Translations under genes and position numbers: made by a program
Part shown: piece after piece, positions 12,167-36,500 of the stretch
How positions within the stretch are numbered: position 1 is the stretch's first letter
Layout of the letters: each line of letters begins with the position of its first letter
Notes under the pieces: generated by a model
The model's database searches: none
What the model was told of the DNA's origin: nothing
The model's input: only the letters and a program-made list of their open reading frames with translations
Source: Flagellimonas algarum
GTDB lineage: Bacteria > Bacteroidota > Bacteroidia > Flavobacteriales > Flavobacteriaceae
Length of the DNA stretch: 64,000 nt
Direction: 5' to 3'
NCBI RefSeq assembly: GCF_040513375.1
Contig: NZ_JBEVTG010000001.1
Location: forward strand, 952,244 to 1,016,243

Positions 12167-12168
12167 GA

Positions 12169-12602: not shown

Positions 12603-13010
12603 ATGATGGATAAGATAGAGCATATCGGAATCGCGGTAAAAGACCTAGAGGCCTCGAATACCCTATTCGCCAAATTGTTCGGCCAGCCCCATTACAAGAT
12701 CGAGGCAGTGCCCTCGGAAGGGGTGCGCACCTCTTTTTTCAAATCGGGCCCGAACAAGATCGAATTGCTCGAAGCAACGGACCCCGATAGTGCGATCGCC
12801 AAGTTCATCGCCAAAAAAGGGGAGGGGATCCACCATATCGCTTTTGCGGTCGAGAATTTGGAAGAAGAACTGCAACGTCTTGAAAAGGAGGGACTTATCG
12901 TCTTGCCGGGCTTTCCGAAACCCGGCGCTGACAACAAAGAGGTCGCCTTTTTGCACCCCAAGGGCACGAACGGGGTGTTAGTCGAGCTTTGCCAAGAGCG
13001 CAAGGCGTAA
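12603..13010 (+). CDS. mce: Methylmalonyl-CoA epimerase (VOC/glyoxalase family)
   Basis: IEHIGIAVKDLEASNTLF...GIHHIAFAVENLEEELQRLEKEG. Two-module VOC fold, 135 aa. Confidence 0.8.
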   Translation: MMDKIEHIGIAVKDLEASNTLFAKLFGQPHYKIEAVPSEGVRTSFFKSGPNKIELLEATDPDSAIAKFIAKKGEGIHHIAFAVENLEEELQRLEKEGLIVLPGFPKPGADNKEVAFLHPKGTNGVLVELCQERKA

Positions 13011-13060
13011 AGGATGTTGGAACATCGAAAAATAAAAGCTAATTTTGCGGTCCAATTAGC

Positions 13061-13134
13061 GGTCCTATAGCTCAGTTGGTTAGAGTAGCTGACTCATAAT
13101 CAGTTGGTCCCTGGTTCGAGCCCAGGTGGGACCA
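13061..13134 (+). tRNA. tRNA-Met (anticodon CAU; could also be the lysidine-modified tRNA-Ile2)
   Basis: Cloverleaf read by hand. Acceptor stem GGTCCTA/TGGGACC, D-arm GCTCAGTTGGTTAGAGT, anticodon stem GCTGA/TCAGT with loop CTCATAA, T-arm CCTGGTTCGAGCCCAGG. CCA is not encoded. Confidence 0.8.
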
Positions 13135-13146
13135 CATCAAGCAGAA

Positions 13147-20033: not shown

Positions 20034-20216
20034 GGCGGTCGGTTTTTACCTAAGTACTGAAGTTACGCACTCCTTTTCAAACACCAATGAGCCAATGGCC
20101 TGCTCTGTTGAGGGAAGCATGGGTTTAGGTGGGCCACCTCCATTTGCGTTCAAAAACCGGAAATCGGGTGTAGGATCTTTGGGCAATCGTATCAAGTCGT
20201 TCCCCAAGTGAAACCC

Positions 20217-20224
20217 TATATTTG
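20217..20224 (+). promoter_or_regulatory. -7 box TATATTTG, overlapped by a near-palindrome TGTGTATCAATAACACA (20223..20239) that is a candidate NrtR operator
   Basis: The TAnnTTTG consensus lies ~20 nt upstream of the ATG at 20246. The imperfect inverted repeat TGTGTAT-CAA-TAACACA overlaps the box. Confidence 0.35.
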
Positions 20225-20245
20225 TGTATCAATAACACATATTGC

Positions 20246-20917
20246 ATGGATGCGATTAAACTAACGGTAGACGCAGTGGTGTTCGGATATGACTCCGGAA
20301 AAATATCGGTGCTTTTAGTGAAAAGAAAATATGAGCCGTTTAAAAATGAATGGGCCATTCCAGGAGGTTTTGTATTGGAAAATGAAAACTTGGAGCAAGC
20401 TGTTGAAAGGGAACTGGCCGAAGAGACAGGGGTCAAAATAAACTACCTTGAACAATTATATACCTTCGGAGGGCTTGGGAGGGATCCTAGGGGAAGGGTC
20501 GTTTCCATCGCTTATTTTGGGTTGGTAAAGCCCAATGCATTTAGGTTGACCCCTTCTACGGATGCCAAGGAAGCCGAATGGTTCAATATCGATACGCTTC
20601 CCAAATTGGCATTTGACCATAAGCATATCTTGAAGACTGCCATTGAAAGACTTCGTGGAAAAATCACCTATGAACCGATTGGGTTTGAATTACTCGATAA
20701 GAAGTTTCCTTTCTCCGATTTGGAAAAACTGTATACCACGCTTTTGAACCGGGAAATCGACCGAAGGAATTTCAAAAAGAAAATCAATAGCTTGAAAGTC
20801 TTGGACGAGTTGGATGAAAAGGTTTCCACTGGGCGAGGAAGACCTGCAAGCCTTTTTAGCTTCAATAAAAAGCGCTATTTCCAGTTAAAAAAAGAGGGTA
20901 TTATCTTCGAAATCTGA
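20246..20917 (+). CDS. nrtR: NrtR-family regulator (N-terminal Nudix ADP-ribose-binding domain plus C-terminal winged helix). The track start at 20222 is a TTG; the likely start is the ATG at 20246.
   Basis: Nudix box GGFVLENENLEQAVERELAEETGV. C-terminal FPFSDLEKLYTTLLNREIDRRNFKKKINSLKVL matches the NrtR wHTH signature (..LyE.iL...lD.rNFrrK..). Confidence 0.7.
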   Translation: MDAIKLTVDAVVFGYDSGKISVLLVKRKYEPFKNEWAIPGGFVLENENLEQAVERELAEETGVKINYLEQLYTFGGLGRDPRGRVVSIAYFGLVKPNAFRLTPSTDAKEAEWFNIDTLPKLAFDHKHILKTAIERLRGKITYEPIGFELLDKKFPFSDLEKLYTTLLNREIDRRNFKKKINSLKVLDELDEKVSTGRGRPASLFSFNKKRYFQLKKEGIIFEI

Positions 20918-20992
20918 TGCTGGCTTATTCCACATAAAAATAATTTGCGTAAAAAAAACACAAAATATCTTGTGAGGTTCAAAAACACAATT

Positions 20993-21000
20993 TATATTTG
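20993..21000 (+). promoter_or_regulatory. -7 box TATATTTG within an imperfect ~30-bp direct repeat (ATTTGCGTAA...ACACAAAATA, twice)
   Basis: 20941..20970 versus 20995..21026 share the ATTTGCGTAA and ACACAAAATA blocks. 40 nt upstream of the SPFH gene ATG. Confidence 0.3.
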
Positions 21001-21039
21001 CGTAATAAATACACAAAATAATCTTAAAAACCAGTCGTT

Positions 21040-22056
21040 ATGTTCGGAATAAACTACATCAAATTCGATTCCATGAATTATGTCATCCATTTTAAAAATG
21101 GAAAAACTAAAAAGGAAGGGCGAGGACTTTCTTTCTTTTACTTTGCCCCGAACTCCTCCATAGTTTCCATTCCCATGGAGAGTAAAGACTTTCAATTCAT
21201 TTTTAAAGAGACCACCAAAGACTACCAAGAAGTTTCCATTCAAGGTCAGATTACTTATAAAGTAAAAGACCCAAAACAATTGGCCGAGGTTCTTGACTTC
21301 ACTGTTGACAGTAAAGGGTACTATATCAAAGATGACAATGAGAAAATCCAACAGCGCATCATCAATGAGGCCCAAACGGCAAGTGCCGGGGTTATACAAA
21401 AGTTAAGTCTTAAAGAAGCGTTACGTCAATTACAGCAGATAGAAACGCAGATCATGGAGAGTGTTCAAAACTCTAAAACCGTACATATGCTTGGTCTTGA
21501 AATATTGAGCGTAAACGTTTTGGGTGTCACCCCAAACCCTGAAATGGCCAGAGCATTGGAGGCCCAGATGCGGGAATCACTTCAAAAGGAAGCGGATCAG
21601 GCCATTTATGAGCGAAGAAATTTTGCCGTTGAACAAGAGCGCATCATCAAGGAAACGGAACTGAATACGGAAATCGCTGTCGAAGAAAAACAGAAACAAA
21701 TCGCTGAAAAGCAAATGGAAACCGAATTAGTGAAGCAAGAAAATGAGCAAAAACTCAAAGAAATGGATATGGCGTCCAACATCTCTTTGGAGGATAGCAA
21801 ACAGCAACTAATCGACCTTAGGGTCGAAAACGAAAAGAAGGAAGCAGATGCTAAAGAGTATGTATTGCATGCCAATCTTCGCCCTTATAAGGAATTGGAT
21901 TGGAAGACGCTTATGGCCATTAATTCCAAAGGTATCGACCCAAGGAATCACATTGCCCTTGCTTTTAGGGAATTGGCCGAGAATGCGGACAAAATAGGTA
22001 ATCTCAATATTTCTCCGGATTTATTGGAGGCTATCATGAGCACAAAGACCGCCTAG
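21040..22056 (+). CDS. SPFH/band-7 domain protein (soluble, no N-terminal TM) with a C-terminal coiled-coil
   Basis: The first 150 aa fit the beta-rich SPFH core (...VSIPMESKDFQFIFKETTKDYQEVSIQGQITYKV...). Residues 180-270 are a Glu/Lys/Gln-rich heptad coiled-coil. Confidence 0.55.
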   Translation: MFGINYIKFDSMNYVIHFKNGKTKKEGRGLSFFYFAPNSSIVSIPMESKDFQFIFKETTKDYQEVSIQGQITYKVKDPKQLAEVLDFTVDSKGYYIKDDNEKIQQRIINEAQTASAGVIQKLSLKEALRQLQQIETQIMESVQNSKTVHMLGLEILSVNVLGVTPNPEMARALEAQMRESLQKEADQAIYERRNFAVEQERIIKETELNTEIAVEEKQKQIAEKQMETELVKQENEQKLKEMDMASNISLEDSKQQLIDLRVENEKKEADAKEYVLHANLRPYKELDWKTLMAINSKGIDPRNHIALAFRELAENADKIGNLNISPDLLEAIMSTKTA

Positions 22057-22057
22057 T

Positions 22058-22981
22058 ATGGAATTGGAAAAGATCATCATTGTTAGGGATAAAACAAGGC
22101 TTGAGCAACTCGTAGAACGGTTTAATTCAAAGGCCCAAGCCAAGTTTTACCTCGAACGCTCCGGAGAGGATTTTGGTTTTTACGAACAAGAGCACAACAC
22201 CTTTTATGCATCACTTGAGCAGGTTCAAAAAACAATTTCCCCTTTGTTCAAGAGTAAGGTGCTGTTCCGTTCTTATTTATCGACCTACATGTTCGCTGAA
22301 GGGGATTTGATCGTGGTCCTCGGTCAAGATGGCTTGGTTGCCAATACCGCCAAATATGTAAACGGACTTCCTATAGTAGCCGTTAATCCGGACGAAGAAC
22401 GTTATGATGGTGTTCTGTTGCCCCATGGTCCGCAAACATTGTTGCCGGCTATTAAAGGCGTTCTTAATGGGACCTATGAATCAAAAAGAGTGACCATGGC
22501 CAAAGCTACCATGAACGATGGGCAAACATTATTGGCCTTCAATGATTTCTATATAGGTGCATCATCGCATGTTTCGTCCCGATATAACCTTGAATTCAAG
22601 GGAAAAAGGGAAAGTCAATCCTCTAGCGGTATTTTGGTTGCTACGGGTGCGGGCTCAACAGGGTGGATCAGCTCTGTCTTTAATATGACCAATAACATCA
22701 ACCAGCATTTTCATAAACAAAAAAACGCGTTCACGGCTGGGTTGGAATGGGAAGACGAACAATTGCTGTTCGTGGTGAGGGAACCTTTTTTAAGTAAAAT
22801 GTCCCAAATAGATTTAGGGTGCGGGATCATAACGAAAAATACACGACTAAAAATCGAATCCAAGATGCCTCAAAACGGAGTTGTTTTTAGTGATGGTATC
22901 GAAGCTGACTTTTTGAACTTTAATTCAGGAAATACACTTAGTATCGGAATCGCCGATGAAAAGGCAAATTTGATTATTTAA
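22058..22981 (+). CDS. NAD-kinase-fold protein (PpnK/diacylglycerol-kinase catalytic superfamily)
   Basis: GDLIVVLGQDGLVAN (compare the GGDGT motif), NDFYIGASSH (compare NE.....) and SGILVATGAGSTGWISSV (compare DGlivSTPTGSTAYslSAGGP). Overlaps the upstream gene by 1 nt. Confidence 0.55.
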   Translation: MELEKIIIVRDKTRLEQLVERFNSKAQAKFYLERSGEDFGFYEQEHNTFYASLEQVQKTISPLFKSKVLFRSYLSTYMFAEGDLIVVLGQDGLVANTAKYVNGLPIVAVNPDEERYDGVLLPHGPQTLLPAIKGVLNGTYESKRVTMAKATMNDGQTLLAFNDFYIGASSHVSSRYNLEFKGKRESQSSSGILVATGAGSTGWISSVFNMTNNINQHFHKQKNAFTAGLEWEDEQLLFVVREPFLSKMSQIDLGCGIITKNTRLKIESKMPQNGVVFSDGIEADFLNFNSGNTLSIGIADEKANLII

Positions 22982-22982
22982 A

Positions 22983-23936
22983 ATGGGGAGAATCAAAAAT
23001 GGTATAATTGGTTTGGCTATTGGGGATGCCCTTGGAGTCCCTGTAGAATTTATTTCCCGTGAAGAATTGAATGCTTCTCCTGTTATGGATATGATTGCCT
23101 TTGGGACACATGATCAGCCCTTGGGCACCTGGTCTGATGACACTTCATTGACGCTTTGCATGTGTGAAGCCCTATTAGAGGGCTTTGACTTGACCAGGAT
23201 TGCCAAGAATTTTATTTTTTGGAAGTACGGTATGTTTTGGACCCCCCATGGGTCTGTTTTTGACATCGGTATCCAAACAAGCAAATCAATAGACAAATTG
23301 AGCAAGGTCATCCAATCTGAACAGTTGGAAGATCTACGATTACTACGATATGAAGCGGATGAGTTCTCCAATGGGAATGGCTCATTAATGCGAATCCTTC
23401 CTTTATATTTTTATTTGAAAGGATCGTCGGTGGAGGGTGATTTTCAACTCATTTGGGAGGTCTCCGCGTTGACACATGGGCATATTCGTTCAGCACTTGC
23501 CTGTATGTTTTATTTGATGATGGTCGATGAATTGGTCCTAGGAAATACGAAAACGGAATCGTATGTAAAGGCCAAAGAACGAATGAACGTGTTTTTTGAA
23601 GTTCGTGATATTGCCGAAAGGGAAATCCGTGTTTTCGACCGAATTGTTTTAAACGATATTAGGGATTTGGAACGTAAAGAAATCCAATCCTCAGGATACG
23701 TCATACATAGTCTCGAGGCGGCTTTGTGGTGCTTTTTGAAAACCGATAGCTTCAAGGAATGTGTGTTAAAAGCAGTCAATCTTGGTGAAGACACCGATAC
23801 TGTTGGCGCTATTGCAGGCGGCCTTGCAGGGGTATACTACGGCGAGCGGAACATTCCGAAAAAATGGATGGATAATTTGGTAAAAATCGACCAGATAAAG
23901 GCATTGTGCGGGCAATTGGAAGCGTATTGGTCTTAA
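22983..23936 (+). CDS. ADP-ribosylglycohydrolase family protein
   Basis: N-terminal GIIGLAIGDALGVPVEF and C-terminal NLGEDTDTVGAIAGGLAGVYYG, the ARH Mg-binding motifs. Confidence 0.8.
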   Translation: MGRIKNGIIGLAIGDALGVPVEFISREELNASPVMDMIAFGTHDQPLGTWSDDTSLTLCMCEALLEGFDLTRIAKNFIFWKYGMFWTPHGSVFDIGIQTSKSIDKLSKVIQSEQLEDLRLLRYEADEFSNGNGSLMRILPLYFYLKGSSVEGDFQLIWEVSALTHGHIRSALACMFYLMMVDELVLGNTKTESYVKAKERMNVFFEVRDIAEREIRVFDRIVLNDIRDLERKEIQSSGYVIHSLEAALWCFLKTDSFKECVLKAVNLGEDTDTVGAIAGGLAGVYYGERNIPKKWMDNLVKIDQIKALCGQLEAYWS

Positions 23937-23979
23937 ATTGATTTCAAACGAAAAACCGCCCCTTGACCAAGGGCGGCTT

Positions 23980-24549
23980 CTATCTAGTACCTCCTTTCTT
24001 TTTATTCGTTTTGCTTTTAGAAAGCTTTTTTTTGATCCGAACGATTTCGTTCTCTGCATACGTTTGGTAATCCGAGTTGTAACTGTAGGCCTTTACTTCT
24101 TCCATGGCCCGGATCGCCATTTTGTATTGGCGCCATTTTTCGAACAACCAACTTTGTAGGTTGTAGAGCACGGCTTTGTCCATACCCTTGACGGTCAAGG
24201 CGAACTCCAGTACTTTTTGTGCTTGGGTAAGATCCTCGTTCAAGATCAAGACGGCGATATAATCCGGATAGATATAAGGCAATTCCAGATCATGCTCCAA
24301 GGCTTCCTCGAAGCAGGCCTTGGCCGCTTCGTATTCCCCCAATTGTTCGGCATATATGGTACCCATCATGCAAAGTGCTTTGACGTTTTTAGCGTCGTAT
24401 GACAAGGCATAGTTCAAGGCTTCGATGGCTTCTTCCAACTCATACGGGTAGGCATCCAAGGCTTTGAATAGGTACATATTGAAATTCGTTCTTTCCATGA
24501 TATTCATTTCTTTGGCGCAAGACTGATCCTGATACGCAGGACCGCTCAT
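23980..24549 (-). CDS. Tetratricopeptide-repeat protein
   Basis: 189 aa with repeated A..Y..AL...P......G motifs (ALNYALSYDAKNVKALCMMGTIYAEQ..). Confidence 0.6.
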   Translation of the reverse strand: MSGPAYQDQSCAKEMNIMERTNFNMYLFKALDAYPYELEEAIEALNYALSYDAKNVKALCMMGTIYAEQLGEYEAAKACFEEALEHDLELPYIYPDYIAVLILNEDLTQAQKVLEFALTVKGMDKAVLYNLQSWLFEKWRQYKMAIRAMEEVKAYSYNSDYQTYAENEIVRIKKKLSKSKTNKKKGGTR

Positions 24550-25267
24550 GCTTGTTTTGAAATCGTCTCGAAATGGCTATATCCGCCGGATATAAAAAAT
24601 CCGAAACATCCTATTGGATTGCCTCGGATCTTCTTAAGGGCTAAGACCCTACAGGAAAGAACCGAAGCAACGGTATTGATCGTTCATCGATCAATCGGCT
24701 TTTAAAACTGGTCTGATGTAAAAGCATCGCTTCGTTTTTATTTGTTTGAAATTCGTGTTGTCGTGTTTCGTTCGACGGGCAAATATGGGGGCTATTTCTG
24801 GATTATGCAAGAAAAAATCGAATTTAAATTATTGATAATCAGTGAATTAAGTTTAAAAAAGGCATAGGGGGTCCCGGTCCGCTTTTCAGCGGATTTTCAA
24901 CATGATACAATCGCCTGTCCCTCAATCGTTTTCTGTTTCAACTATCCGGTATATGTCATTTTACTTTTCTTGCATTCGTTTTAAAATTTTTCATAAAAAA
25001 AGCGCCCAATTGGTGTAGGACGCTTCGTTATGGTATCAAAATCGGTTTTAAATCAATGTATAAATCCATTTAAACCGGACACATCACGTCCTTTTCGCGA
25101 GGATAATTCGATTATCCAGCGATAGTCCACCTGACTGAACAGGTCTTTTGGGATGCTATGTACTCCAGTATTTTTCATTTGCATTGCAAAGATGCAAAAA
25201 TCCCTGGATTTCCAAGAGATTGCAAAGAATATCGCTATTCGGGATGGATGTGGCGCCGTCTAATGAC

Positions 25268-28063
25268 CTACGAGTATAAGAAGCTCCGTAGTTGTGTCAG
25301 CACACCTTCTTGGTCAAAATACCAATCGGCGAACGAGAGCGGGAAGACCTTGATCTGGGCACGGTTCAGGATGCGGATTCGCTCCACACTAAGCGCGTGG
25401 ACAAAGTCACCCGGATACCCGATCAAATCAATGGCGTAGTACCCTTTTTCGGTTTGGATCAATAGATCCAGGGTGATGTCGGCGATCCGATAGCCTTCCC
25501 AAAATTGGACCATAGCTTCTTTGGGCAAATGGTCTTGGATCTGCTTCAGGAAGAAATCCCGTTCCAGTCCTTGGGCGTGCGGTTTCGAAACGCTTTTTTC
25601 TTTTCCATACACCAAAAATTTTCGCAGCAGACTCCCAGGACGAAAATCCTTTGGATTGCCCGAATGATACACATACTGCCCATGTCTGGCCCGTGTCACC
25701 GATACATTGAAGACATCCGCCTTGTTCAAATGGCCATGGGCCGAATGATGGGTGGCCCCATCTACGACCAACGAAAGGAACATCAGGTCACGCTCTTCGC
25801 CTTGAAAGGCGTAAGGGGTGCCGACCTTGAACCGATGGCGCTCGAGGGTTTCGACCTCGAAACGATCGAATAGCGCCTCCGAAAGATGATCGACCTGACT
25901 TCTAAAAGGCGATAGGATTCCGATTGAAGTGACCAACGAAGGGTCCCACTCGGCCTCTTGGGCGACCCGCTCCCCCACATCCCGCAGCAAACGTTCGGCT
26001 TCGATGCTGTTGACGCCTTGCGCATCCCGGCTGCCATCACAAGGAATGAGGTAAAGCGACCGTTCGTCACGACCCGGCTTATGGGTCATCAAACGCAGTT
26101 CGTTGTTGTAGAATTCGCGATTGCTGAACCCGATGATCTGGGGCAGACTGCGGTAATGCTCGTCGAGCATGGCTACTTGCGATCGGCGTTGTAGGCTGTT
26201 GATGGCAAGGTCGAGAATGCTATGGTCACGGTAGTTCAACAAAAAGGGATCTACTGCTTGCAACCCCAGTTTTTGTTGCAATTGGAATTGTACGTTCTTC
26301 GATAAGAACGAGATATGGCGCAGTTGGTTCGGGTCACCGGCGAACACCACCCTTTTGGCGCGTTGTAAGGCCGGCAGACAAGAAGCGATATCGCACTGGG
26401 TCGCCTCATCGATGATCACCACATCGAACAGTCCGTTGATCAAGGGCACCTTGTCCTTCACTTCGGAAAGGTTGATCAACCATATCGGGAAGGCCTTTAA
26501 AACGCAATCGAAGTCTATTTTTTCAAAGATGGCGATGCGCTCCGTATCGCTATGGGTGTTCAGTGCCCGGTAGAATTCATTGAAATCGCCCCAATGGTCG
26601 TGCATGACCTTGAGCAGGTTCAAAATGTAGTTCCATTTTAAGAACTCCTTGGTCTTCTTGACCGAATCGCCGTCTTTGGTCCGGATTTCCGACACGATTT
26701 CATGCAGCGCTTCCTGAAAAGGCAGTTTGTTGACCAGTTGCAACCATAGCGACTTGAGGTCATCCCACAGCTTGGATTCCTTTTGGCTCAAAAAATCGCT
26801 TTTCGCTTGTTCCCCCTCCAAAACCGCCGCGTAATCTTGCTCCAATCCCTGGGTCTCCCGCTTGATTTTTTGCAATTGACGATGGAGTGATTCGATAAAA
26901 TCGCGGAGCTTACCGATATCATCGAACCCATTGTGCTCTTCGAATTCTTTATGTAAAAACCGCATGGGAGAAGCACTGACCAACATCGATTTAATGAAAC
27001 GCCGCACTTTGGTGACGTGTTTTCGTTTTCGACCGCCCCTGATGATACAGTGTTCGAAACCCAGCTGCCCGTTGATCTTTTCTGCCACGACATCGACCGC
27101 CTCATCGGTTCTCGAGACGACCAATACCGATTCGCCCCGACTCATATGTTCAAGGGCAATGGCCGAAATGGTATAGGTCTTCCCGGTTCCCGGCGGACCG
27201 ACGATCAGGGTGGTCGGATGGGTAGCTGCCGAAATCAAAAGGCTTTTCTGGGCTTTGCTCAGCACCGTGGGTACGTAGCCCATCACCGCTTCGGGTGTTG
27301 CGGGCAACGATTTTGCCGAGCGCTCGAAGAGGGTGGTATAGGGGCTTGAAAAGGTAGAGGCGGCACCCAGTTGTTTCAGTTCGTTGAGCACCCCACGGGT
27401 CTGTTTTGACTTTTCGACGATACCCATGACACTGAAGGGCAAGATCTGATAGCTATTCTCGGTCCCTTTTAGTTTTCGCAATCGATACCGTATTTGCCCA
27501 AGGCTGAGGTTGTTCGGATAGCCCAATAATTCTTGGGCCTCGATATCGGGATGGTGTTTTTCGAACAAGGCGATCAATTGGCCGACATGCTCGAAGCGAA
27601 ACGGGCCACTGGGCAACGCCTTAAGCAGGGCGTTTTGGAAATTGTCGGTTTCATCGGCACTGGCCAAGAGCTGTAACAACGGATAGTTGAGTCGGCGTGA
27701 TTGCAGGTCGATCCGGGCAAAATAAAACCCGTCGTTCTGTTCTACGCGAATATCATGGTAGAGCAAAGGGGCGCAAAGGGCCTGTGATTTTCCCCGAAAA
27801 TCGACATAGGTGCCACACACAAAGAGGGCTCCATGAACCAGTTCTTTTTCCTTTTCGAACAGTTTTGCGTTTTTCAGTAACAGCTCGCCCTGTTCGTTGG
27901 GAATGGGCACAATGGGATAGGTGCCGTTGATCAGTTCTTCTTCTTCGAAAAAGACTTTATGGGCGACCTTGGGTTTGAGAAAGTCCATGATGCTGATCGA
28001 TCGGTTGTCGGCCAGATAGCAATCATGGAAGTAGTTGGCGATGTTGGCGAGATTCCCTGTCAT
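25268..28063 (-). CDS. Superfamily-1 (Upf1/DNA2-like) helicase with a C-terminal Vsr/DUF559-like PD-(D/E)xK nuclease-fold domain
   Basis: Walker A LIVGPPGTGKTYTI. Walker B/motif II VVIIDEATQ. Motif VI VFNVSVTRAR. C-terminus YRIADITLDLLIQTEKGYYAIDLIGYPGDF...ERIRILNRAQIKVFPLSFADWY resembles DUF559 (yivDF...IEvDG..H...D..Rd..L...G..vlRf). Confidence 0.7.
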   Translation of the reverse strand: MTGNLANIANYFHDCYLADNRSISIMDFLKPKVAHKVFFEEEELINGTYPIVPIPNEQGELLLKNAKLFEKEKELVHGALFVCGTYVDFRGKSQALCAPLLYHDIRVEQNDGFYFARIDLQSRRLNYPLLQLLASADETDNFQNALLKALPSGPFRFEHVGQLIALFEKHHPDIEAQELLGYPNNLSLGQIRYRLRKLKGTENSYQILPFSVMGIVEKSKQTRGVLNELKQLGAASTFSSPYTTLFERSAKSLPATPEAVMGYVPTVLSKAQKSLLISAATHPTTLIVGPPGTGKTYTISAIALEHMSRGESVLVVSRTDEAVDVVAEKINGQLGFEHCIIRGGRKRKHVTKVRRFIKSMLVSASPMRFLHKEFEEHNGFDDIGKLRDFIESLHRQLQKIKRETQGLEQDYAAVLEGEQAKSDFLSQKESKLWDDLKSLWLQLVNKLPFQEALHEIVSEIRTKDGDSVKKTKEFLKWNYILNLLKVMHDHWGDFNEFYRALNTHSDTERIAIFEKIDFDCVLKAFPIWLINLSEVKDKVPLINGLFDVVIIDEATQCDIASCLPALQRAKRVVFAGDPNQLRHISFLSKNVQFQLQQKLGLQAVDPFLLNYRDHSILDLAINSLQRRSQVAMLDEHYRSLPQIIGFSNREFYNNELRLMTHKPGRDERSLYLIPCDGSRDAQGVNSIEAERLLRDVGERVAQEAEWDPSLVTSIGILSPFRSQVDHLSEALFDRFEVETLERHRFKVGTPYAFQGEERDLMFLSLVVDGATHHSAHGHLNKADVFNVSVTRARHGQYVYHSGNPKDFRPGSLLRKFLVYGKEKSVSKPHAQGLERDFFLKQIQDHLPKEAMVQFWEGYRIADITLDLLIQTEKGYYAIDLIGYPGDFVHALSVERIRILNRAQIKVFPLSFADWYFDQEGVLTQLRSFLYS

Positions 28064-28081
28064 GCGCTTTGGTGGGCGGTC

Positions 28082-28840
28082 TTATCGCAGCATTTCATGA
28101 AGTTTCTGCACGTCTTGGTGCACCAGGGTCAACCGTCCTTCGATCATATCCGAAAAGTCCGGGATGCGGTGACAGAACACCTGCCGAATTTCCCAGAGCT
28201 CCTTGATGGCCGAAACGGGCATTACGATATCGACGATGTTCTTATGGTCCGTTTTCAGCGTGATTTCACCCGACGAAAAGAAAAACCGCCTGAAGATGAG
28301 CGCTTCGGCAGTGACTACCACACAATACGCCCCTTTTTCCACTTTCTTGAAATCCTTTTTGGTTACAGCTTCCCCGATAATGATGTCCTTGGGGTAAAAG
28401 CCCCGGTCCAGATGGGTCATCTCAAGGTTTTGGACTTCGAAAGCCCGCGAAGAATCCGGCCGATCCACAGGCAATTGAAGTTTGGGAAGGCCTTTGAGAA
28501 AAGCCTCGTCTTCATACGAAAAAGGATAGTCCGAAATATAGGTGCCCGTGACACAACCGATTTCTGGAAAACGGTCGTTTACGATCTTGGTCGAGTCAGT
28601 GGTCAGGTCCGCTTTGAATTTCAAGAGCTCATTGACCGTAAGTTCGTTGGTCAAGAGGTCGTCGATCGTGATACTAAAATAATTAGCAATTTTGATAATC
28701 GTATCGATTTTCGGTTCACTTCGCTGCTCTTCATAGGCTCCCAGAGTCGCACGTTTCAGGTCGAAAATCTCTGAAAAGGCCTGTTGGCTCATGTTCTGGA
28801 CACTACGGATTTTCTTGATGTTCTTGCCGAAGAAAGACAT
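28082..28840 (-). CDS. XRE-family HTH regulator with a C-terminal LexA/S24-peptidase-like domain (catalytic Ser/Lys apparently not conserved)
   Basis: HTH: IKKIRSVQNMSQQAFSEIFDLKRATLGAYE. The C-terminal ~110 aa (..EVQNLEMTHLDRGFYPKDIIIGEAV...AYCVVVTAEALIFRRFFFSSGEITLKTDHKN..) follows the S24 beta-fold pattern, but has EMT where GDSM is expected and R where the general-base Lys is expected. The 18-nt gap to the helicase gene suggests co-transcription. Confidence 0.65.
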   Translation of the reverse strand: MSFFGKNIKKIRSVQNMSQQAFSEIFDLKRATLGAYEEQRSEPKIDTIIKIANYFSITIDDLLTNELTVNELLKFKADLTTDSTKIVNDRFPEIGCVTGTYISDYPFSYEDEAFLKGLPKLQLPVDRPDSSRAFEVQNLEMTHLDRGFYPKDIIIGEAVTKKDFKKVEKGAYCVVVTAEALIFRRFFFSSGEITLKTDHKNIVDIVMPVSAIKELWEIRQVFCHRIPDFSDMIEGRLTLVHQDVQKLHEMLR

Positions 28841-28852
28841 AATTTGCTAATA

Positions 28853-28866
28853 ATATTTGCAAATAT
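28853..28866. promoter_or_regulatory. Perfect 14-bp palindrome ATATTTGCAAATAT in the divergent promoter region, flanked by ATTTGC half-sites. Candidate operator for the adjacent HTH regulator.
   Basis: The sequence is self-complementary. Additional ATTTGC repeats lie at 28843..28848 and 28875..28880. Located 13 nt upstream of the regulator ATG. Confidence 0.5.
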
Positions 28867-29062
28867 GAAAATTATTTGCTATGTTTGTTAGGTAAATATA
28901 GCAATTTATGTGGTCGCGACCCGTTATTTTGCTGAAAAAAATAGACATTTTACAAATTTAGCTATGATTTTTAGCCATTTTATATGGATGGATTCATGAA
29001 AAGGCAGTAATTTATAGCTTCATTTGAGAGCGACAGTATAAACAGAAACCAGCCCAAAACGC

Positions 29063-29458
29063 ATGGAAGATAATTTTCAAAAGGTCAAAGCATATCTACA
29101 ACAATTGGATCTCGATATCGCCACTGAAAACCAGGAGGAAGGTATTTTGGTCATCAATAAGGAACAAGAAGGTATCAAAAACCTGATCTTAGGGGTATTT
29201 ACCCCCATATTGATCATCGAGCAGCACATTTTCGATATCGCCCAAGGCGATGCCAAAATCTATAAGGAGCTCCTCAAAAAGAACAGGGATATCGTGCATG
29301 GGGCTTTCGTACTCGATGAATCCGGTGAAAAAGTAATCTTTAGGGACACCCTCAGATTGCAACACTTGGATCTCGACGAACTCGAGGGATCCTTAAATTC
29401 CTTAAGCCTATTGCTAAGTGAATATGCCGATCAAATTATAAACTATTCAAAACAATAA
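29063..29458 (+). CDS. YbjN-domain-like protein (putative sensory-transduction/T3SS-chaperone-like fold)
   Basis: 131 aa, acidic, with a two-half alpha/beta pattern (..EGILVINKEQEGIKNLILGVF... / ..IVHGAFVLDESGEKVIFRDTL..). Sits immediately upstream of PspA (3-nt gap), as in yjfI-yjfJ-type operons. Confidence 0.45.
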   Translation: MEDNFQKVKAYLQQLDLDIATENQEEGILVINKEQEGIKNLILGVFTPILIIEQHIFDIAQGDAKIYKELLKKNRDIVHGAFVLDESGEKVIFRDTLRLQHLDLDELEGSLNSLSLLLSEYADQIINYSKQ

Positions 29459-29460
29459 AC

Positions 29461-30177
29461 ATGGTAAATTTTTTCAAAAGACTATTTAAGATCGGCGAAG
29501 CCGAGGCGAATGCCGTAATCGACAAGATGGAAGACCCCATCAAACTGACCGAACAAGGGATACGTGACATGAAAGGTGATTTGGAAAAAAGCCTCGAATC
29601 CTTGGCGCAAGTCAAGGCCTTGGCCATTCGTTCCAAGAACGACACCGAGGAGTTTTTGGCCAAGGCCGAAGACTATGAGCAAAAAGCCATGCTGATCCTT
29701 CAGAAAGGCCATAAGAACGAAATCGATACCACAGAGGCCGACCGTTTGGCCAAAGAGGCCCTTGTTAAAAAGGAAGCCGCGAACCAACAGGCCGCCCGTA
29801 GCAAAAGCGACACGGAAAAGTTCGAAGGCTCCGTGGCCAAACTCGAGAAGAACGTGCAAGAGATCAAGCAGAACATTTCCCGATGGGAAAATGAACTCAA
29901 GACCTTAAAAGCCAGGGTCAAGGTGTCTAAAGCCACCAAGAACCTCAACAAGCAAATGGCTGAGATCGACAGCTCGAGTACCGTCTCGATGTTAGAGCGC
30001 ATGAAAGAGAAAGTGCAGCAAGAAGAAGCGCTGGCCGAAGCCTATGGCGATATCGCCAACGCTTCCAAATCCATCGATGAGGAAATCGACAAGGCCGCCG
30101 ATGTATCGGAAGCCAATGCCGATGCCGATTTGGCGAAGCTCAAGGAACAATTGGGCCTGAATGACAAGAAATCGTAA
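29461..30177 (+). CDS. pspA: PspA/IM30 (Vipp1) family protein
   Basis: N-terminus FFKRLFKIGEAEANAVIDKMEDPIKLTEQGIRDM aligns to PspA [33 protein letters not shown]. All-helical coiled-coil over 238 aa. Confidence 0.85.
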   Translation: MVNFFKRLFKIGEAEANAVIDKMEDPIKLTEQGIRDMKGDLEKSLESLAQVKALAIRSKNDTEEFLAKAEDYEQKAMLILQKGHKNEIDTTEADRLAKEALVKKEAANQQAARSKSDTEKFEGSVAKLEKNVQEIKQNISRWENELKTLKARVKVSKATKNLNKQMAEIDSSSTVSMLERMKEKVQQEEALAEAYGDIANASKSIDEEIDKAADVSEANADADLAKLKEQLGLNDKKS

Positions 30178-30222
30178 CAACGAACACCACCGAAGTAATC
30201 ACATCATAAACACCGACCGACA

Positions 30223-30933
30223 TTGGAACAGTATTTTGACATCCTTTTTTCACAGGTAAACAGTACCCTGACCATTCTTTTGATCATCCTCATCGTTTAC
30301 TGGTTGATCACCATGGTCAGCGGTCTCGACTTCGACCTCGACGTTGATGTCGACGTTGACATCGATGCCGATGTCGACTTGGAAGTGGACACCGGAATCG
30401 AAGGGGGAAGCATGGACTTTTCCGATGTCGCGAATGCAGAGGTCGACCGTGAACACGTCGTCAACAAAAAAACACGCAAACTGAAATGGTGGCAGATCGT
30501 GTTGATTTATTTCAACTTTGTCGGATTGCCGTTTATGTTCACGTTCACGTTTTGGATCTTCCTTTGGTGGATCATCAGTGTACTGGCCACAGTACTTACC
30601 TTCAGCTATGACAATAGCTTTGGGTTCGTCATCGTACTGTTGGCCATCGTTCCCTCCCTGATACTGACCAAGATCGTCACCACGCCTTTCAAGGCCTTTT
30701 TCAAAAACCTGAACAAAGACGGTGACGAGGCGGTCGATTTTCTAGGAAGGGAGGCCATTTTGCAATCGACGGTTTCCGGTGATAAACTGGGCAATGCCGA
30801 GGTGAATGCCAACGGAAACATCATGAACATCTATGTCAAATCGCTTGATGGTTCCGAATTGCGGTTCCGCGAAAGCGTGCTCATCATCAAACAATCGGAC
30901 GACAAAAGCTTCTTTTTCGTAAGCAGATCATAA
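30223..30933 (+). CDS. YqiJ/DUF1449-like inner-membrane protein with an NfeD-type C-terminal OB-fold. The start is a TTG; the first in-frame ATG (30313) would delete TM1.
   Basis: TM helix TLTILLIILIVYWLITMVSGL. Acidic tract DFDLDVDVDVDIDADVDLEVDTG. Two further TMs. C-terminus GREAILQSTVSGDKLGNAEVNANGNIMNIYVKSLDGSELRFRESVLII, an NfeD-like beta-barrel. Confidence 0.6.
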   Translation: MEQYFDILFSQVNSTLTILLIILIVYWLITMVSGLDFDLDVDVDVDIDADVDLEVDTGIEGGSMDFSDVANAEVDREHVVNKKTRKLKWWQIVLIYFNFVGLPFMFTFTFWIFLWWIISVLATVLTFSYDNSFGFVIVLLAIVPSLILTKIVTTPFKAFFKNLNKDGDEAVDFLGREAILQSTVSGDKLGNAEVNANGNIMNIYVKSLDGSELRFRESVLIIKQSDDKSFFFVSRS

Positions 30934-30967
30934 GTCAATTTAAACAACTAAAAATCACATTATAACT

Positions 30968-33034
30968 ATGGAAGGAATCTTACCTATCATCGTAACGGCA
31001 TTGGGAGTCTTGCTGTTTCTAATCATCGTATACTTTGCGATCATCGCCCTGTTCTATAAAAAGGTGCACCAAGGGGAAGCTTTGGTACGTACCGGGTTCG
31101 GGGGTACCAAGGTCGCTACGGACAAAGGGCTCTACGTCGTACCTGTTTTTCACCGTGTCGAGGTCATGGATATCTCGGTAAAGAAGATACAGATCGAACG
31201 TATGGGTGTCGAAGGATTGATCTGTAAAGACAATATGCGTGCCGATATCAAGGTAGCCTTCTTTGTGCGCGTCAACAACGAAGTGGATTTCATCAAAAAA
31301 GTGGCACAGACCATCGGGGTCGCCAGGGCTTCCAGAAAGGAAACCTTGGAAGACCTTTTCGAGGCGAAATTCTCCGAAGCCTTGAAGACCGTTGGAAAGA
31401 AGTTCGAGTTTACCGCCCTCTATGAAGCCCGTCGCGAATTCCGCGATGAGATCGTCGATATCATCGGTACCGACCTCAATGGATATACCCTCGAAGACTG
31501 CGCCATCGATTACCTCGAGCAGACCTCGGTATCGCATTTGAAACCCGACAACATCCTTGATGCCGAAGGGATCAAAAAGATCACCGATCTGACCGCGGCG
31601 CAAAACATCAAGGCCAACCTGATCAAAAGGGATGAGGAGAAGATCATCCGCAAGCAGGATGTCGAGGCCCGGGAAGCGATTTTGGAATTGGACCGACAAT
31701 TGGCCGAGAAAGAGGAACAACAAAAACGGGAGATCGCCAATATCAAATCGCGTGAAGAGGCCGAGATCATGAAGGTGGCCGAAGAAGAGAAACTCAAATC
31801 GGAAAGTGCCCGTATCGCCACCGAAGAGAAATTACAAGTGGCCGAAGAAAACAAACTACGCCAAGTGGTGGTGGCCCAAAAGAACAAAGAGCGTACCGCC
31901 GCCGTTGAAACCGAACGTGTTGAAAAAGACCGTGCCCTAGAGGCTACCGAAAGGGAGCGCGTGGTCACCCTGGCCCAGATCGAGAAAGAAAAGGTCGTTG
32001 AGGTCGAGAAGAAAAACATCCAAGATGTGATTCGCGATCGCGTCATGCTCGAAAAAGGCGTAGTCGAAGAGCAAGAGAACATGAAGGACATTCAAGCGTT
32101 CAAAGGGGCCGATCGTGAGAAACAAGTGAAAGTGACCCTTGCCGAAGCCGCGGCCCAAGAGGATCTGATCAAGACCTTGAAAGCGGCCGAAGCCCAGAAA
32201 GAGGCAGCCAAGCAAAAGGCCGAAGAGGTCAATATCGAAGCCCAGGCCCATAAAGAAGCCAGTGAGAAAGAGGCCGAAGCCCGTAAGACATTGGCAGAGG
32301 CCAAAGCCAAAGAAGAAGCGACCATTGGTCTATCGGAAGCCGAAGTGATGCACGCGAAAGCCGATGCTTCCGAAAGGCAGGGTACGGTCGAAGCCTTGAT
32401 TATTGAGAAAAAAGCCAAGGCCGAAGCCGCAGGAATCGAAGCCAAAGCCGATGCGATCAAGAAAGAAGGCTTGGCCGAGGCCGAGGTTATCAAGGAAAAA
32501 GCCATCGCCGATGCTGCCGGTATCGAAGAAAAGGCCAATGCCATGAAGAAGCTTGACGGTGTCGGAAAAGACCATGAGGAGTTCAAACTGCGATTGGAGA
32601 AAGAACTACAGATCGATTTGGCCCATATCAATATCCAGAAGGAAATCGCCGATGCCCAGGCCCGTGTGCTTTCTGAAGGATTGAAAGCCGCGAATATCGA
32701 TATCGTCGGTGGGGAGTCCATGTTCTTTGATCAAATCGTCGGACAGATAACCCGCGCCAAAGGCTTCGATCGATTGCTTCAGCACTCCGAGCAGGCCCAA
32801 GACATCAAAGATGCGATTTTGGGAACCGAAGATGTGGCAGGCAATTTATTGGGCCGCATCAAGGAATTTGCCGTTCAGTACGATATTTCATCCGAAGATC
32901 TGAAGAACCTTTCCGTGGCCAACCTTCTGCTGCAATTGAAGTCAAGGGCAACGAGCAACGACGAGGGCAATATGTTCGAAAACTTGTTGAACCTGGCCAA
33001 TAGCCTTGGATTGGGCAACAAGAAATTGAAATAA
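30968..33034 (+). CDS. Flotillin-family (YqiK-like) SPFH protein with a long coiled-coil
   Basis: N-terminal TM, then SPFH core GEALVRTGFGGTKVATDKGLYVVPVFHRVEVMDISVKKIQIE... About 350 aa of EA/AK-rich heptads. 688 aa. Confidence 0.85.
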   Translation: MEGILPIIVTALGVLLFLIIVYFAIIALFYKKVHQGEALVRTGFGGTKVATDKGLYVVPVFHRVEVMDISVKKIQIERMGVEGLICKDNMRADIKVAFFVRVNNEVDFIKKVAQTIGVARASRKETLEDLFEAKFSEALKTVGKKFEFTALYEARREFRDEIVDIIGTDLNGYTLEDCAIDYLEQTSVSHLKPDNILDAEGIKKITDLTAAQNIKANLIKRDEEKIIRKQDVEAREAILELDRQLAEKEEQQKREIANIKSREEAEIMKVAEEEKLKSESARIATEEKLQVAEENKLRQVVVAQKNKERTAAVETERVEKDRALEATERERVVTLAQIEKEKVVEVEKKNIQDVIRDRVMLEKGVVEEQENMKDIQAFKGADREKQVKVTLAEAAAQEDLIKTLKAAEAQKEAAKQKAEEVNIEAQAHKEASEKEAEARKTLAEAKAKEEATIGLSEAEVMHAKADASERQGTVEALIIEKKAKAEAAGIEAKADAIKKEGLAEAEVIKEKAIADAAGIEEKANAMKKLDGVGKDHEEFKLRLEKELQIDLAHINIQKEIADAQARVLSEGLKAANIDIVGGESMFFDQIVGQITRAKGFDRLLQHSEQAQDIKDAILGTEDVAGNLLGRIKEFAVQYDISSEDLKNLSVANLLLQLKSRATSNDEGNMFENLLNLANSLGLGNKKLK

Positions 33035-33110
33035 GGATAGGCAGGCCCTGCCTTCTACAAGGGGTAGGGCATGCTTTCTATAGCGAACATTCACGAGAGA
33101 CACCCCTTCT

Positions 33111-33455
33111 ATGTTGAACCGTTTTATACGTTGGATAAGTGGTTTGGGAACCGCCCAAAACGCGACCCTTGAACACCAAGGGAAACGACCGCACTCCAAC
33201 GCTGGTCATGTGGTCAAAGGGCATAGTCAAGTGGTTCGGGTACCCGATTTGGGATATGGCCAAAGCTATCGCCTAACGAAATGGCACAAAGAACCTGGGG
33301 ATCACATTCGTTCGGGAGACATCGTTTGCAGTTTAGAGAATGAAACGATCCTCTTCGAATTTGAAAGTTTATACAGTGGTCGGTTGCAATATCGCATTCC
33401 GCTGAACCAAAAGATGGAAGTGGGCGAAGTGCTGTTCCATATCGAAGGGATGTAA
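33111..33455 (+). CDS. Small protein with a lipoyl/biotinyl-attachment (hybrid-motif) fold that lacks the modifiable lysine
   Basis: VVRVPDLGYGQSYRLTKWHKEPGDHIRSGDIVCSLENETILFEFESLYSGRLQYRIPLNQKMEVGEVLFHIEG matches the lipoyl-domain pattern (P.lG....g.i..W.vk.GD.V..gd.l.evETDKa..ev.sp..G.l..i.v..G..v.vG..l..i). The sequence has ENET where ETDK is expected. Confidence 0.4.
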   Translation: MLNRFIRWISGLGTAQNATLEHQGKRPHSNAGHVVKGHSQVVRVPDLGYGQSYRLTKWHKEPGDHIRSGDIVCSLENETILFEFESLYSGRLQYRIPLNQKMEVGEVLFHIEGM

Positions 33456-33525
33456 GCGCATCCCGCCGATCGGCCAACGACTGAAGAAAATAAATAGGGC
33501 AGCAAGCAACGAATCAAAAACAACA

Positions 33526-36500
33526 ATGCAGGAAGAACAAGAACATACGCCTAGCAATACCCTACTCGATGATGGCACCTATGAGATCATCCGGGCCCGC
33601 TTAAAGGAGCAGAAAAACGCCTTGCAAACACGGCTTAATCAGCTCAACGAAAGCCGAAAGCAGGTTTTTGGAAGCGTCGTGACCCAACTGATTGCCAACA
33701 ATCGAATCAACACCGAGAACAATTGCATTGCCCGTGACATCATCACCATTGGCGAACACACCATTTTGGGCTATAATGTCCATTTTGGGTTGCGTACCCA
33801 GATCAAATTGGAAGATGTGTTCGGCGTTTTTGCGTATCAAGATGGGGGGTTCGTAGCCCAAAACCTCTCCTTGATCGATGACGAGGTGTTCTTGAACGAC
33901 TTCGTCAACCTCTATAAGTACTACCGAAATACCATTTTCAGCAAGTTTGCCGTGGTGGGCAACTACCTGCACATGGTTTTTCAGCTTAGCGAAAGCACCT
34001 CCGATATCAAAACCTTCAAATGGTTGATCAAAGACGGCAGTTTGCGCTATCAAGACAACCGTAGCGACCATGAATTCAGAATGCCGGCCCAGCATGGGTT
34101 CCATTGGGTGGAGACCGACCGCGACATGCAGCGCTACGGCGATTTCCCCCATGTATCCATTCTAGACAAGGTATTCGTTGAAACCGTTGGGGGCGACCTT
34201 ACCATCAAGATCGAAGACAATACCGATGAAGGCCTGGGGATCTTCAGTGAAGCCGTCGAACATCAAGACCAAACACTCGACGACGGGCAGTTTCGCTATG
34301 CCGAGATCGGTAACCTCATCGCCATTGAAATCAAGCCGTTTCAAGAAGAACCGCGGTATTTCGTATACAACCACAAGATCCAAGAGGTCAAGAAAATACC
34401 CAGCATCAAAAATGCCTGCATCCTGCTTCCCAATGACCAAGGGGTCATTTATCCGAACGGATATTACTTACAATCCGGGGCTTTTAAGAAGTTTGAAAAC
34501 GACTTGGGCAAGGTGCGGTTTCAAGAGAAGGTCAGCTCGCCCAATGGCGAAGACTTTCTCTATGTTTTTTACGAAAGTGAAACGGGGGTCTATGTATTGA
34601 TGTCTTACAACGTCATTGAGCAAGAAGTGAAGACCCCGATCATTTGTAACGGGTTTACCTTGCTTAAAAACGGGGAGCTCTGTTATTTCAAGACCGATGG
34701 CGAGCAAACCAAGCACCATGTCATTCAAATTTGGCAGACCACCTTTATGAAAGGGACCGAGATCCCGTCCGAACATACCGACACCTTGTTGTACAAAATC
34801 GGCAATAAGGACATCGTAGCGGCCATGGCCGAATGCCAATCGTTGATCACCCTTTTAAACAAAGAAGATAGCTACAGCGGGCTCTACGACGACCTGGTTA
34901 AGTTCGCGACCGACATTCTTGATAGTTATTATTGGATCCATGAGGAAGAGGCCCATGAGCTCAACCTGCCATTGATTGCCATCAACGATACGGCCAATGC
35001 GGCGATCGATGAATTCGAAAAAGTCGTGCAACTTCGTAAAACGGCCGCTTCGACCACAAAAGCGACCCAAGAAACCGCAGCCGCACTTTTTGGGAAGATC
35101 AAAAGCAGCTCCTTCAAATCGATCGATGATTTCGTGAAGATCTTATCGAACCTCCGCTCGTTTCGGGGTGAGGTCATCGGTTTAAAGGAAGTACGCTATG
35201 TCGATGTTTCCTTTATTGAAGAATTGGAGGTCCAGATCGCTGAGCAGACCGAAAAGGTTTCGCAACGCTGCGTGCTATTCCTTATCGATGACAAAGCCCT
35301 ATTGCCTTATCAAGACCGCGTGTCCGAAAAGCAGCAGCAATTGGAAAAGGTGGTCAAGGTCGTCGACACCAAACAACTACAAGACGAGGTGAACCAGATC
35401 GCGGTCGACCTCGAAATGCTCATTGAGATCGTTTCGAACCTCAAGATCGAAGACACTTCGCAAACCACGAAGATCATCGACAACATTTCCCTGATCTTCG
35501 CGTCGATCAACCAGCTGAAGGCAGGGATCAAGAACAAGATCAATGCGCTTTCCGTCGAAGAATCGGGTGCCGAATTCGCGGCCCAATTGAAATTGGTCGA
35601 TCAGAGCGTGATCAATTACCTCGATATTTCGGGTACCCCTGAAAAGACCGATGAATTGTTGAACAAGGTGGTGCTCCAACTTGAAGACCTCGAAGGGCGC
35701 TTCGCCGATTTCGAGGACTTTATCGCACAGATCATCGAAAAGCGCGAAGAAGTATACAATGCCTTTGAAGCCCGTAAAATGGCTTTGGTAGAGGCCCGTA
35801 ACAAACGCACCGTGGCCTTGGAAAATTCGGCCAACCGCATTTTGAAAGGGGTGCTTAAAAAATCGCTGACCTTCGACAACCTGAACGACATCAACGGATA
35901 TTTCGCCGGAGACCTTATGGTGAGCAAGATCCGCGATATCGTGCAGCAGCTGTTGGAATTGGAAGATTCCGGCAAGGCCGAAGCCATAGAGACTGCGGTC
36001 AAAGTGGCCAAGGAAGATGCGATTCGAAAGCTGAAAGACAAGCAAGACCTGTATGAAGATGGAGAGAACATCATCAAATTGGGCAAGCACAAATTCGGCG
36101 TGAACAAACAGGTATTGGACCTCACCATCGTCTATAAGGATGACCGTCTTTTTTACCATTTGACGGGGACGGATTTTTACCAAGAAATCGAAAACGAGAC
36201 CTTGACCAAATCCCAAGCCTATTGGAACCAAGAGCTGGTTTCCGAAAACCAGCAGGTATACCGTGCGGCCTATTTGGCCTATAAGATCTTCAAGGCGAAC
36301 GATGCAACCGAGTTGCATGCCATGTCGAAATCGGCCTTGAAGCAACTCGTGGTCGATGCCACGAGCAAAAACTATGCGGAAGGCTATGTGAAAGGGGTGC
36401 ATGATGAGGATGCCCATAAGATCCTAATGGCACTGGTGGCGAAACATCACGACTTGGGAGTGCTGACCTACGCCCCTAACATCAGGGCCTACGCCCAATA

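Follow-up and report, generated by a model that had tools for sequence, protein, structure and literature searches.

On the minus strand of a 64,000-nucleotide stretch of the Flagellimonas algarum genome (RefSeq assembly GCF_040513375.1, contig NZ_JBEVTG010000001.1, positions 952,244 to 1,016,243; the whole stretch is called the window below), the gene for an XRE-family regulator (28082-28840) is followed by the gene for a helicase with a nuclease-like tail (25268-28063). Do these two genes form a dedicated module, or does the regulator serve another system to which the helicase has become attached? An initial annotation, made from the sequence without database searches, read them as a co-transcribed pair reminiscent of SOS-controlled or anti-mobile-genetic-element (anti-MGE) functions. 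Both open reading frames (ORFs) that it described, and the spacer of exactly 18 nt between them, were confirmed. The most probable explanation of the arrangement is that a stand-alone helicase/restriction-endonuclease (REase)-like gene joined, in one flavobacterial lineage, the transcription unit of a regulator whose primary job is a divergently transcribed envelope-stress operon of the phage-shock-protein (PSP) type; we consider this likely, if by no means certain.

The regulator and its divergent operon

Across a 222-bp intergenic region (28841-29062), the regulator gene faces a plus-strand operon (29063-38403). The operon encodes, in order, CesT_Tir_1 (29063-29458), PspA (29461-30177), a transmembrane (TM) protein (30223-30933), a 688-aa Band7/flotillin-like protein (30968-33034), a small biotin-lipoyl-like ORF, and a 1625-aa DUF3686/DUF7902/AAA protein (33526-38403). 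These assignments come from Pfam, with synteny in Croceitalea sp. P059, GCA_947503285, Ulvibacterium, Aquimarina, Dokdonia, and Croceivirga. This operon type, composed of CesT/Tir-PspA, TM-band-7-flotillin, a coiled-coil/beta-propeller AAA+ protein, and a YqiJ/YuaF-like TM protein, has been described previously (Ravi et al. 2024, PMC11237479). The 1,625-aa AAA+ protein matches DUF3686 with an E-value of 9e-174; the Pfam label of that family, 'ATPase involved in DNA repair', is odd beside a membrane-stress operon.

The regulator family is abundant in Flavobacteriaceae, with identities of 51-62% in Aquimarina, Dokdonia, Croceivirga, Salinimicrobium, and others. The CesT-PspA-TM-flotillin-AAA cluster was found divergent from the regulator in all 7-8 regulator loci examined (at least six genera; operon genes located by tblastn). 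The helicase is present in the window, Croceitalea sp. P059, GCA_947503285, and Ulvibacterium, and absent downstream of the regulator in Aquimarina, Dokdonia, and Croceivirga. In these last three genera the regulator is divergent from genes for CesT_Tir_1 (131 aa), PspA (237 aa), and a membrane protein of about 235 aa, and the operon continues with a 688-aa Band-7/flotillin-like protein and a DUF3686/DUF7902/AAA protein of 1,621-1,641 aa. A strong terminator hairpin follows the regulator stop in Dokdonia and Croceivirga. Loss of the helicase from these genera was considered, and no helicase relic was found 3' of the regulator in Croceivirga, Aquimarina, or Dokdonia. Because the divergent adjacency is kept across genera, also where there is no helicase, the XRE regulator is most likely the transcription factor of the adjacent PSP-type envelope-stress operon and a previously unrecognised component of it. 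A dedicated regulator-helicase module, as implied by the initial annotation, is made unlikely by the regulator family being kept beside the PSP operon without the helicase, and by helicases that occur elsewhere without the regulator.

The region shared by the two divergent units contains a candidate operator, a 19-bp near-palindrome, TTGCTAATAATATTTGCAA, directly upstream of the regulator ATG (28844-28862). Its core, TTGCAAATAnnATTAGCAA, is invariant across 7 flavobacterial genera. Three TTTGC(A/T)A boxes are clustered within about 40 nt of the intergenic region, and TAnnTTTG boxes are located at 28953-28960 (minus strand) and 28880-28887 (plus strand). The near-palindrome and the TTTGC(A/T)A boxes are likely the operator of the PSP-operon regulator, and the helix-turn-helix (HTH) domain would most likely bind there. 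A scan of the window for sigma-70 promoters and terminators gave site counts not above shuffle expectation, the count of the Bacteroidetes -7 motif in the window was at chance level, and no Rfam match was found in 20000-34000.

The regulator (252 aa) is an exact match to WP_353876354.1 of Flagellimonas sp. DF-77 / F. algarum, named 'helix-turn-helix transcriptional regulator' in the database. Its description as an HTH-S24 protein stands, the first domain being recognised above cut-off and the second weakly. The Cro/C1-type HTH DNA-binding domain (aa 5-66; 28643-28828) was identified by the Pfam families HTH_19 and HTH_3 (E 6e-10) with scores above gathering (39.3 bits against a cut-off of 30.2 and 36.6 against 23, respectively). 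It is nearly invariant in an alignment of 14 orthologues, and its profile matches in the PDB include XRE repressors such as CylR2 and PezA. The C-terminal domain (aa 125-207; 28220-28468) matches Peptidase_S24 (PF00717) below the gathering score (15.6 bits vs 23.3, E 0.013). An S24-like fold is nevertheless plausible, because each of the 14 family members tested gives the weak signal (best E 2e-4) and because the profile of the family also touches LexA.

The catalytic dyad of S24 repressors, a Ser nucleophile and a Lys general base, is absent from the regulator. No invariant Ser occurs in aa 120-210 of the orthologue alignment, and on manual alignment the position of the S24 'GDSM' motif is taken by an invariant N138-L-E-M141. 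The residue aligned by hhalign with Lys156 of E. coli LexA is an invariant Arg184. Since the S24-like domain lacks the Ser/Lys dyad, LexA-type self-cleavage of the regulator, and hence the suggested SOS control, is unlikely. The domain may serve as a dimerisation or signal-sensing module and not as a self-cleaving protease.

Architecture of the helicase

The 931-aa helicase corresponds to WP_353876353.1 ('AAA domain-containing protein'), and its full-length homologues have about 930 aa. The helicase core (aa 268-800; 25664-27262) scores well above the Pfam gathering cut-off of 27 (AAA_11 85.6 bits, AAA_12 74.9). Superfamily 1 (SF1) motifs I, II, and VI had been reported as intact; these motifs (GPPGTGKT, DEATQ, and VTRAR) are invariant in 32 homologues, as are motifs III (GDPNQL) and V (FQGEERD). 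An AlphaFold2 (AF2) model built on the 32 homologues reached a mean pLDDT of 85.7. Foldseek searches of the PDB with this model returned Senataxin, Upf1, IGHMBP2, Aquarius, Sen1, ZNFX1, and DNA2 as the best motor matches (E down to 2.5e-24), the first three at E 2.5e-24 to 1e-19. Because the best PDB matches of the model are Upf1-like helicases, the motor is assigned on structural grounds to the Upf1-like SF1B group. Its secondary structure contains a long all-helical insertion (aa 383-525; 26489-26917), which in the model occupies the place of the Upf1 accessory domains. By analogy, the motor would move 5'->3' on single-stranded DNA or RNA.

The N-terminal region, of which about 250 aa had been left unassigned, indeed has no significant Pfam assignment over its approximately 260 aa in the window protein. 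It is a family-specific domain (aa 1-262; 27278-28063). A search of 1.84 billion proteins with its profile yields only 652 clusters (at 50% identity), and nearly all complete proteins among the 150 best matches listed are about 900-940 aa long; the domain is thus private to the helicase/REase-like architecture. A link to DUF4011 was considered and not adopted, as weak matches were obtained in only two of the 32 members and the hhalign comparison with the N-terminal part of a DUF3320 protein of the Hhe-like kind was insignificant, with a probability of 0.5%.

The C-terminal domain (aa 836-931; 25271-25558) is a Vsr/DUF559-fold (MTES_1575-type) REase-like domain with a reduced motif. Modelled alone, the last 106 residues (pLDDT 86.6) adopt an alpha-beta-beta-beta-alpha-beta fold matching solved Vsr/DUF559/MTES_1575 members, in agreement with the fold first proposed; RNA-binding RAP domains are also among the top structural matches. 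Profile searches gave a divided answer: PF18741 (MTES_1575) is matched by 19 of the 32 family members, while the window protein itself has no PF18741 or PF04480 match at E<0.1, and no DUF3320 was detected. When the C-terminal profile of the family was compared by hhalign with the MTES_1575/DUF559 domain of a Sphingobium plasmid 'DUF3320 protein', a probability of 93% was obtained. In the paper that defined it, MTES_1575 was presented as a new REase of the Vsr family that occurs in fusion with SF-I helicases (Anantharaman et al. 2013, PMC3710099).

Residue by residue, D866 corresponds to the canonical D, D879 to the E, and I881 to the following D, and the canonical Y-H-G is represented by Y-P-G, with P884 in place of the histidine. 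The signature D ... E-x-D-G-x-x-(Y)H is therefore incomplete throughout the family, in which neither the second acidic residue nor the histidine is retained. The substitution of IDLIG for IEVDG had been correctly noticed in the window protein, and it proved to be family-wide. Five residues (D866, D879, G882, R901, and W914) are invariant across the family. The domain may either cut by means of a minimal metal site or only grip nucleic acid, and any nuclease activity of the helicase is putative.

Linkage of the two genes and distribution of the helicase

In the window, 18 nt separate the stop codon of the regulator from the start codon of the helicase (28064-28081, minus strand; GACCGCCCACCAAAGCGC). 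The length of this spacer, though not its sequence, is the same in Croceitalea sp. P059, GCA_947503285, and Ulvibacterium, and in the metagenome contig L171 the spacer is 9 nt. No hairpin or terminator was found in the spacer of the window. A terminator-like hairpin with a T-run (25202-25217, minus strand; a match to the consensus only) lies about 50 nt past the helicase stop. Co-transcription of the two genes, as initially proposed, is likely because the spacing is kept, no terminator intervenes, and the terminator-like hairpin lies 3' of the helicase. With so short a spacer and no intervening terminator, the helicase of the Flagellimonas DF-77 / Croceitalea / Ulvibacterium lineage would be expressed from the autoregulated promoter of the regulator. 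In this way, two functional units that are unrelated have probably come together in a single transcription unit within a small clade of flavobacteria.

The pair was found in five loci, namely the four genomes above and contig L171, all of one clade of marine flavobacteria, and both genes are probably also present on two further contigs. When the window is compared with the three closest genomes, identity is 93-95% for PspA/flotillin, 74-80% for the regulator, and 63-73% for the helicase. The G+C content at third codon positions (GC3) is 0.62 for the helicase, 0.60 for the regulator, 0.61-0.65 for the PspA, TM protein, flotillin, and AAA genes, and 0.49 for CesT. A recent horizontal import of the helicase was rejected, its GC3 matching that of the regulator and of the PSP genes (CesT excepted). 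An integrase or transposase occurs near the pair in Ulvibacterium and in contig L171. The Ulvibacterium locus also contains, about 220 nt past the helicase stop, a pseudogene relic (9016-9183, minus strand) of the DUF3686-AAA gene, corresponding to its last ~52 codons, with 57% identity and an internal stop, followed by a PAP2 gene and the integrase. The PSP unit may therefore once have been duplicated or rearranged in this genome; the window contains no such relic. A 171-aa 'hypothetical protein' (P0379) from a Flavobacteriaceae metagenome-assembled genome with contigs of up to 157 kb is 96% identical to helicase residues 761-931 and may be a truncated or frameshifted helicase copy in a close relative. 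Because P0379 represents the 90% cluster to which the helicase belongs, the window protein is absent from the list of homologues.

Full-length homologues of the helicase were found in Bacteroidota, Planctomycetota, Verrucomicrobiota, Gammaproteobacteria, Betaproteobacteria, and Gastranaerophilales; only six clusters are at least 55% identical to the window protein. The helicase loci studied (80 from genomes and 80 from metagenomes) are the best of longer lists and mostly encode distant helicases, the closest relatives having been added by exact-protein look-ups. The regulator was not found by tblastn among these 160 listed loci. When the ORFs flanking the helicase in 38 loci were clustered by BLAST, no shared neighbour appeared beyond local synteny, and searches with Pfam on upstream and on downstream genes revealed no conserved partner. 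For a wider census, 146 neighbours in 33 non-redundant loci were assigned to Pfam families; of the 164 families represented, none occurs in more than four proteins, and restriction, defence, or integrase domains are not enriched. The contexts of the helicase in four complete Bacteroidota genomes are unrelated to each other. Only one full-length match was obtained in 72,556 plasmids (a Persicobacter megaplasmid), and no full-length family member was found among phages or in IMG/VR. The only clearly defence-like context seen among the loci is that of Labilibaculum antarcticum (locus L084), where the helicase homologue is followed by genes for a 946-aa Avs-like STAND protein (Cap4_nuclease/NB-ARC/TPR; 10259-13099) and for a ResIII/DEAD helicase. 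The family may be described as rare, widely scattered, and otherwise stand-alone, with a private N-terminal domain, an ATP-driven motor, and a domain of Vsr/DUF559 fold.

Competing explanations and what they would mean

The alternative that survives best makes the helicase a functional add-on of the envelope-stress system: a membrane perturbation such as phage entry would derepress the regulator promoter and thereby call up, along with the PspA/flotillin/AAA+ machinery, a motor acting on nucleic acids as a defence or repair arm. Several observations lean in this direction and weigh against a helicase that is simply carried along with the regulator. The adjacency has been stable through divergence, persisting while helicase identity drops to 55% and regulator identity to 60%, and the spacing is tight and conserved; selection for co-expression, beyond simple inheritance, could account for such persistence. 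In Pseudomonas sp. HS-2, which belongs to a distant phylum, a DUF3686-AAA homologue (3-4733 of the locus; 40% identity over 1,483 aa to the 1,625-aa protein of the window) lies 1.2 kb upstream of a helicase homologue (5977-8691). A gene for TelA (toxic anion resistance, PF05816) is located 6-20 nt upstream of the helicase, and co-directional with it, in three loci of two lineages, two of Oleispira and one of Pseudothauera (L011, 4770-5945; L014, 4826-5989; L019, 4871-5971). The TelA-linked helicases form a longer subfamily of 1,055-1,102 aa, and in that subfamily TelA and the helicase look like a gene pair. Clusters of extracytoplasmic function (ECF) sigma genes, with anti-sigma/CpxP-like genes, flank the helicase in two Bacteroidota genomes (Labilibaculum antarcticum and L086), although ECF sigma genes are so common in Bacteroidota that chance adjacency is plausible. 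Together with the AAA-gene relic just past the helicase in Ulvibacterium, these cases are what the add-on has in its favour, and the proximities of DUF3686-AAA, TelA, and ECF genes hint at a recurrent envelope-stress link that pure hitch-hiking would not have foreseen. It is also possible that an internal promoter within the 3' end of the regulator gene acts separately from the regulator promoter.

Set against these observations, most PSP operons of this type have no helicase, and none is named with them in the text of PMC11237479. Genes for envelope stress are missing from most helicase loci: of the 33 non-redundant ones, only two contain TelA, only two ECF sigma, and only two the PSP regulator. 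We regard the add-on as unlikely. The broader proposal, that the helicase is wired into the PspA/flotillin/AAA+ regulon and that its proximity to TelA, DUF3686-AAA, and ECF genes marks a wider, unrecognised link of the family to envelope-stress sensing, is distinctly unlikely. If true, such coupling would tie membrane sensing to nucleic-acid processing, for which the present support is thin.

It is quite improbable that the helicase is a low-abundance housekeeping or accessory DNA/RNA enzyme (acting in repair, on R-loops, or in RNA quality control) with a non-catalytic REase-like domain and a position without regulatory meaning. Neighbours that are mostly ordinary metabolic or transport genes, the chromosomal location implied by the plasmid and phage searches, the host-like GC3, the family-wide loss of two of the four canonical catalytic residues, and the RAP domains among the structural matches would suit such an enzyme. 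A patchy distribution, with about 650 clusters in all and few close to the window protein, and a divergence faster than that of PspA/flotillin in the three closest genomes would not, and the invariant D866 and D879 suggest a retained metal site. The initial annotation had named as its own counter-case a conserved housekeeping repair helicase, present in all relatives at a different locus and without the regulator; that picture holds in so far as most homologues do lie at other loci without the regulator, and fails in that the gene is sporadic and not universal.

A dedicated two-gene anti-MGE system, in which the HTH protein would govern a toxic helicase-nuclease effector, is very improbable: the operon-like arrangement, the sporadic distribution, partial PADLOC matches (MkoA/MkoC, PDC-S37, and Hhe for the helicase; control proteins and CapH for the HTH), the Avs-like STAND protein in Labilibaculum, and the integrase or transposase near the Ulvibacterium and L171 loci are outweighed by a regulator whose conserved partner is the PSP operon, also without the helicase, by a helicase that occurs nearly everywhere without the regulator, by matches to defence models that are limited to the generic helicase core or the HTH, with scores far below curated cut-offs, and by neighbourhoods with no defence-island signature.

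The explanation that we favour, of a stand-alone helicase gene that joined the transcription unit of the PSP-operon regulator, corrects a case of guilt by association: the annotation of the regulator belongs with the PSP-type operon and not with the government of a defence gene. The operon, for which the text of the 2024 description names no regulator, gains a candidate transcription factor and a candidate operator. In addition, a compact and rare helicase-REase family (about 650 clusters) has been delimited, and its reduced Vsr-type site makes it a clean target for the question of cleavage.

Two other regions of the window were noted. A block of low GC3 (0.44-0.46, compared with 0.60-0.65 nearby) at 20222-23936 on the plus strand encodes an NrtR-like Nudix/winged-HTH regulator, a 338-aa Band-7/SPFH protein, a 307-aa protein without Pfam match, and an ADP-ribosylglycohydrolase, and may represent an NAD/ADP-ribose-related island. 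A giant ORF of 2,194 aa (13449-20033, minus strand; GC3 0.456) adjoins the only tRNA of the window (tRNA-Met, 13061-13135).

Comparison with known systems

The divergent cluster has the same composition and order as the operon of PMC11237479; the text of that paper names neither an XRE/S24-like regulator nor a helicase with the operon, and both are additions of the present analysis. The regulator resembles LexA, lambda CI, and UmuD in combining an N-terminal DNA-binding domain with a C-terminal S24-like beta domain, a similarity that is weak yet consistent. Those proteins self-cleave through Ser/Lys, whereas the regulator has no invariant Ser and an Arg in place of Lys156, and RecA-stimulated autocleavage is not expected.

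The motor finds its best structural counterparts in Upf1, Senataxin/Sen1, IGHMBP2, Aquarius, DNA2, and ZNFX1 (Foldseek E 1e-24 to 1e-17), which share its motif set. Sequence identity to these eukaryotic helicases is only 12-20%, their accessory domains are different, and the insertion in domain 1A is, unlike theirs, all-helical. The nuclease of DNA2 is an N-terminal PD-(D/E)XK domain, while the nuclease-like domain of the window helicase is C-terminal and Vsr-like.

Among defence proteins, Nhi, MkoC of Mokosh, and PDC-S37 share with the helicase the concept of an SF1 motor and a nuclease in one polypeptide. Matches of the helicase to PADLOC/NCBIfam models (MkoA/C, PDC-S37, Hhe, ProA, PLuB, and IGHMBP2) are confined to the generic core and far below curated cut-offs. 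The partial profile matches of MkoC (1.8e-37) and PDC-S37 (8.8e-33) extend over about 300 of 1,100-1,550 profile positions, and Nhi matches at the P-loop only (E 6e-4). In the MkoA and MkoC profiles, the matched segments are positions 665-975 of 1136 and 787-1068 of 1112; with no phospholipase D (PLD) domain and no partner gene, the locus is not a Mokosh system, and the nuclease of MkoC is of the PLD type and not Vsr-like. Unlike these defence genes, the helicase family is not known to have a defence phenotype, and the 146-protein census shows no defence-island context for it.

A close relationship is that to the Hhe-type DUF4011/SF1/MTES_1575 REase/DUF3320 proteins of about 1,800-1,900 aa, in which an AAA_11/AAA_12 core is likewise followed directly by a REase of Vsr/DUF559 fold. 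Plasmid-borne 'DUF3320 domain-containing proteins' align with helicase residues 524-931 by tblastn and hhalign. The score against the Hhe model (NCBIfam NF042953) is 69.8 bits, compared with a cut-off of 2000, and derives from core positions only. The window helicase is half the size of the Hhe-type proteins, lacks their DUF3320/winged-HTH tail, and has an N-terminal domain of its own; its REase motif reads D..DxIG..YPG where theirs reads D..ExDG..YHG. The helicase is thus a new compact variant of the known kind that unites a helicase with a Vsr-like REase.

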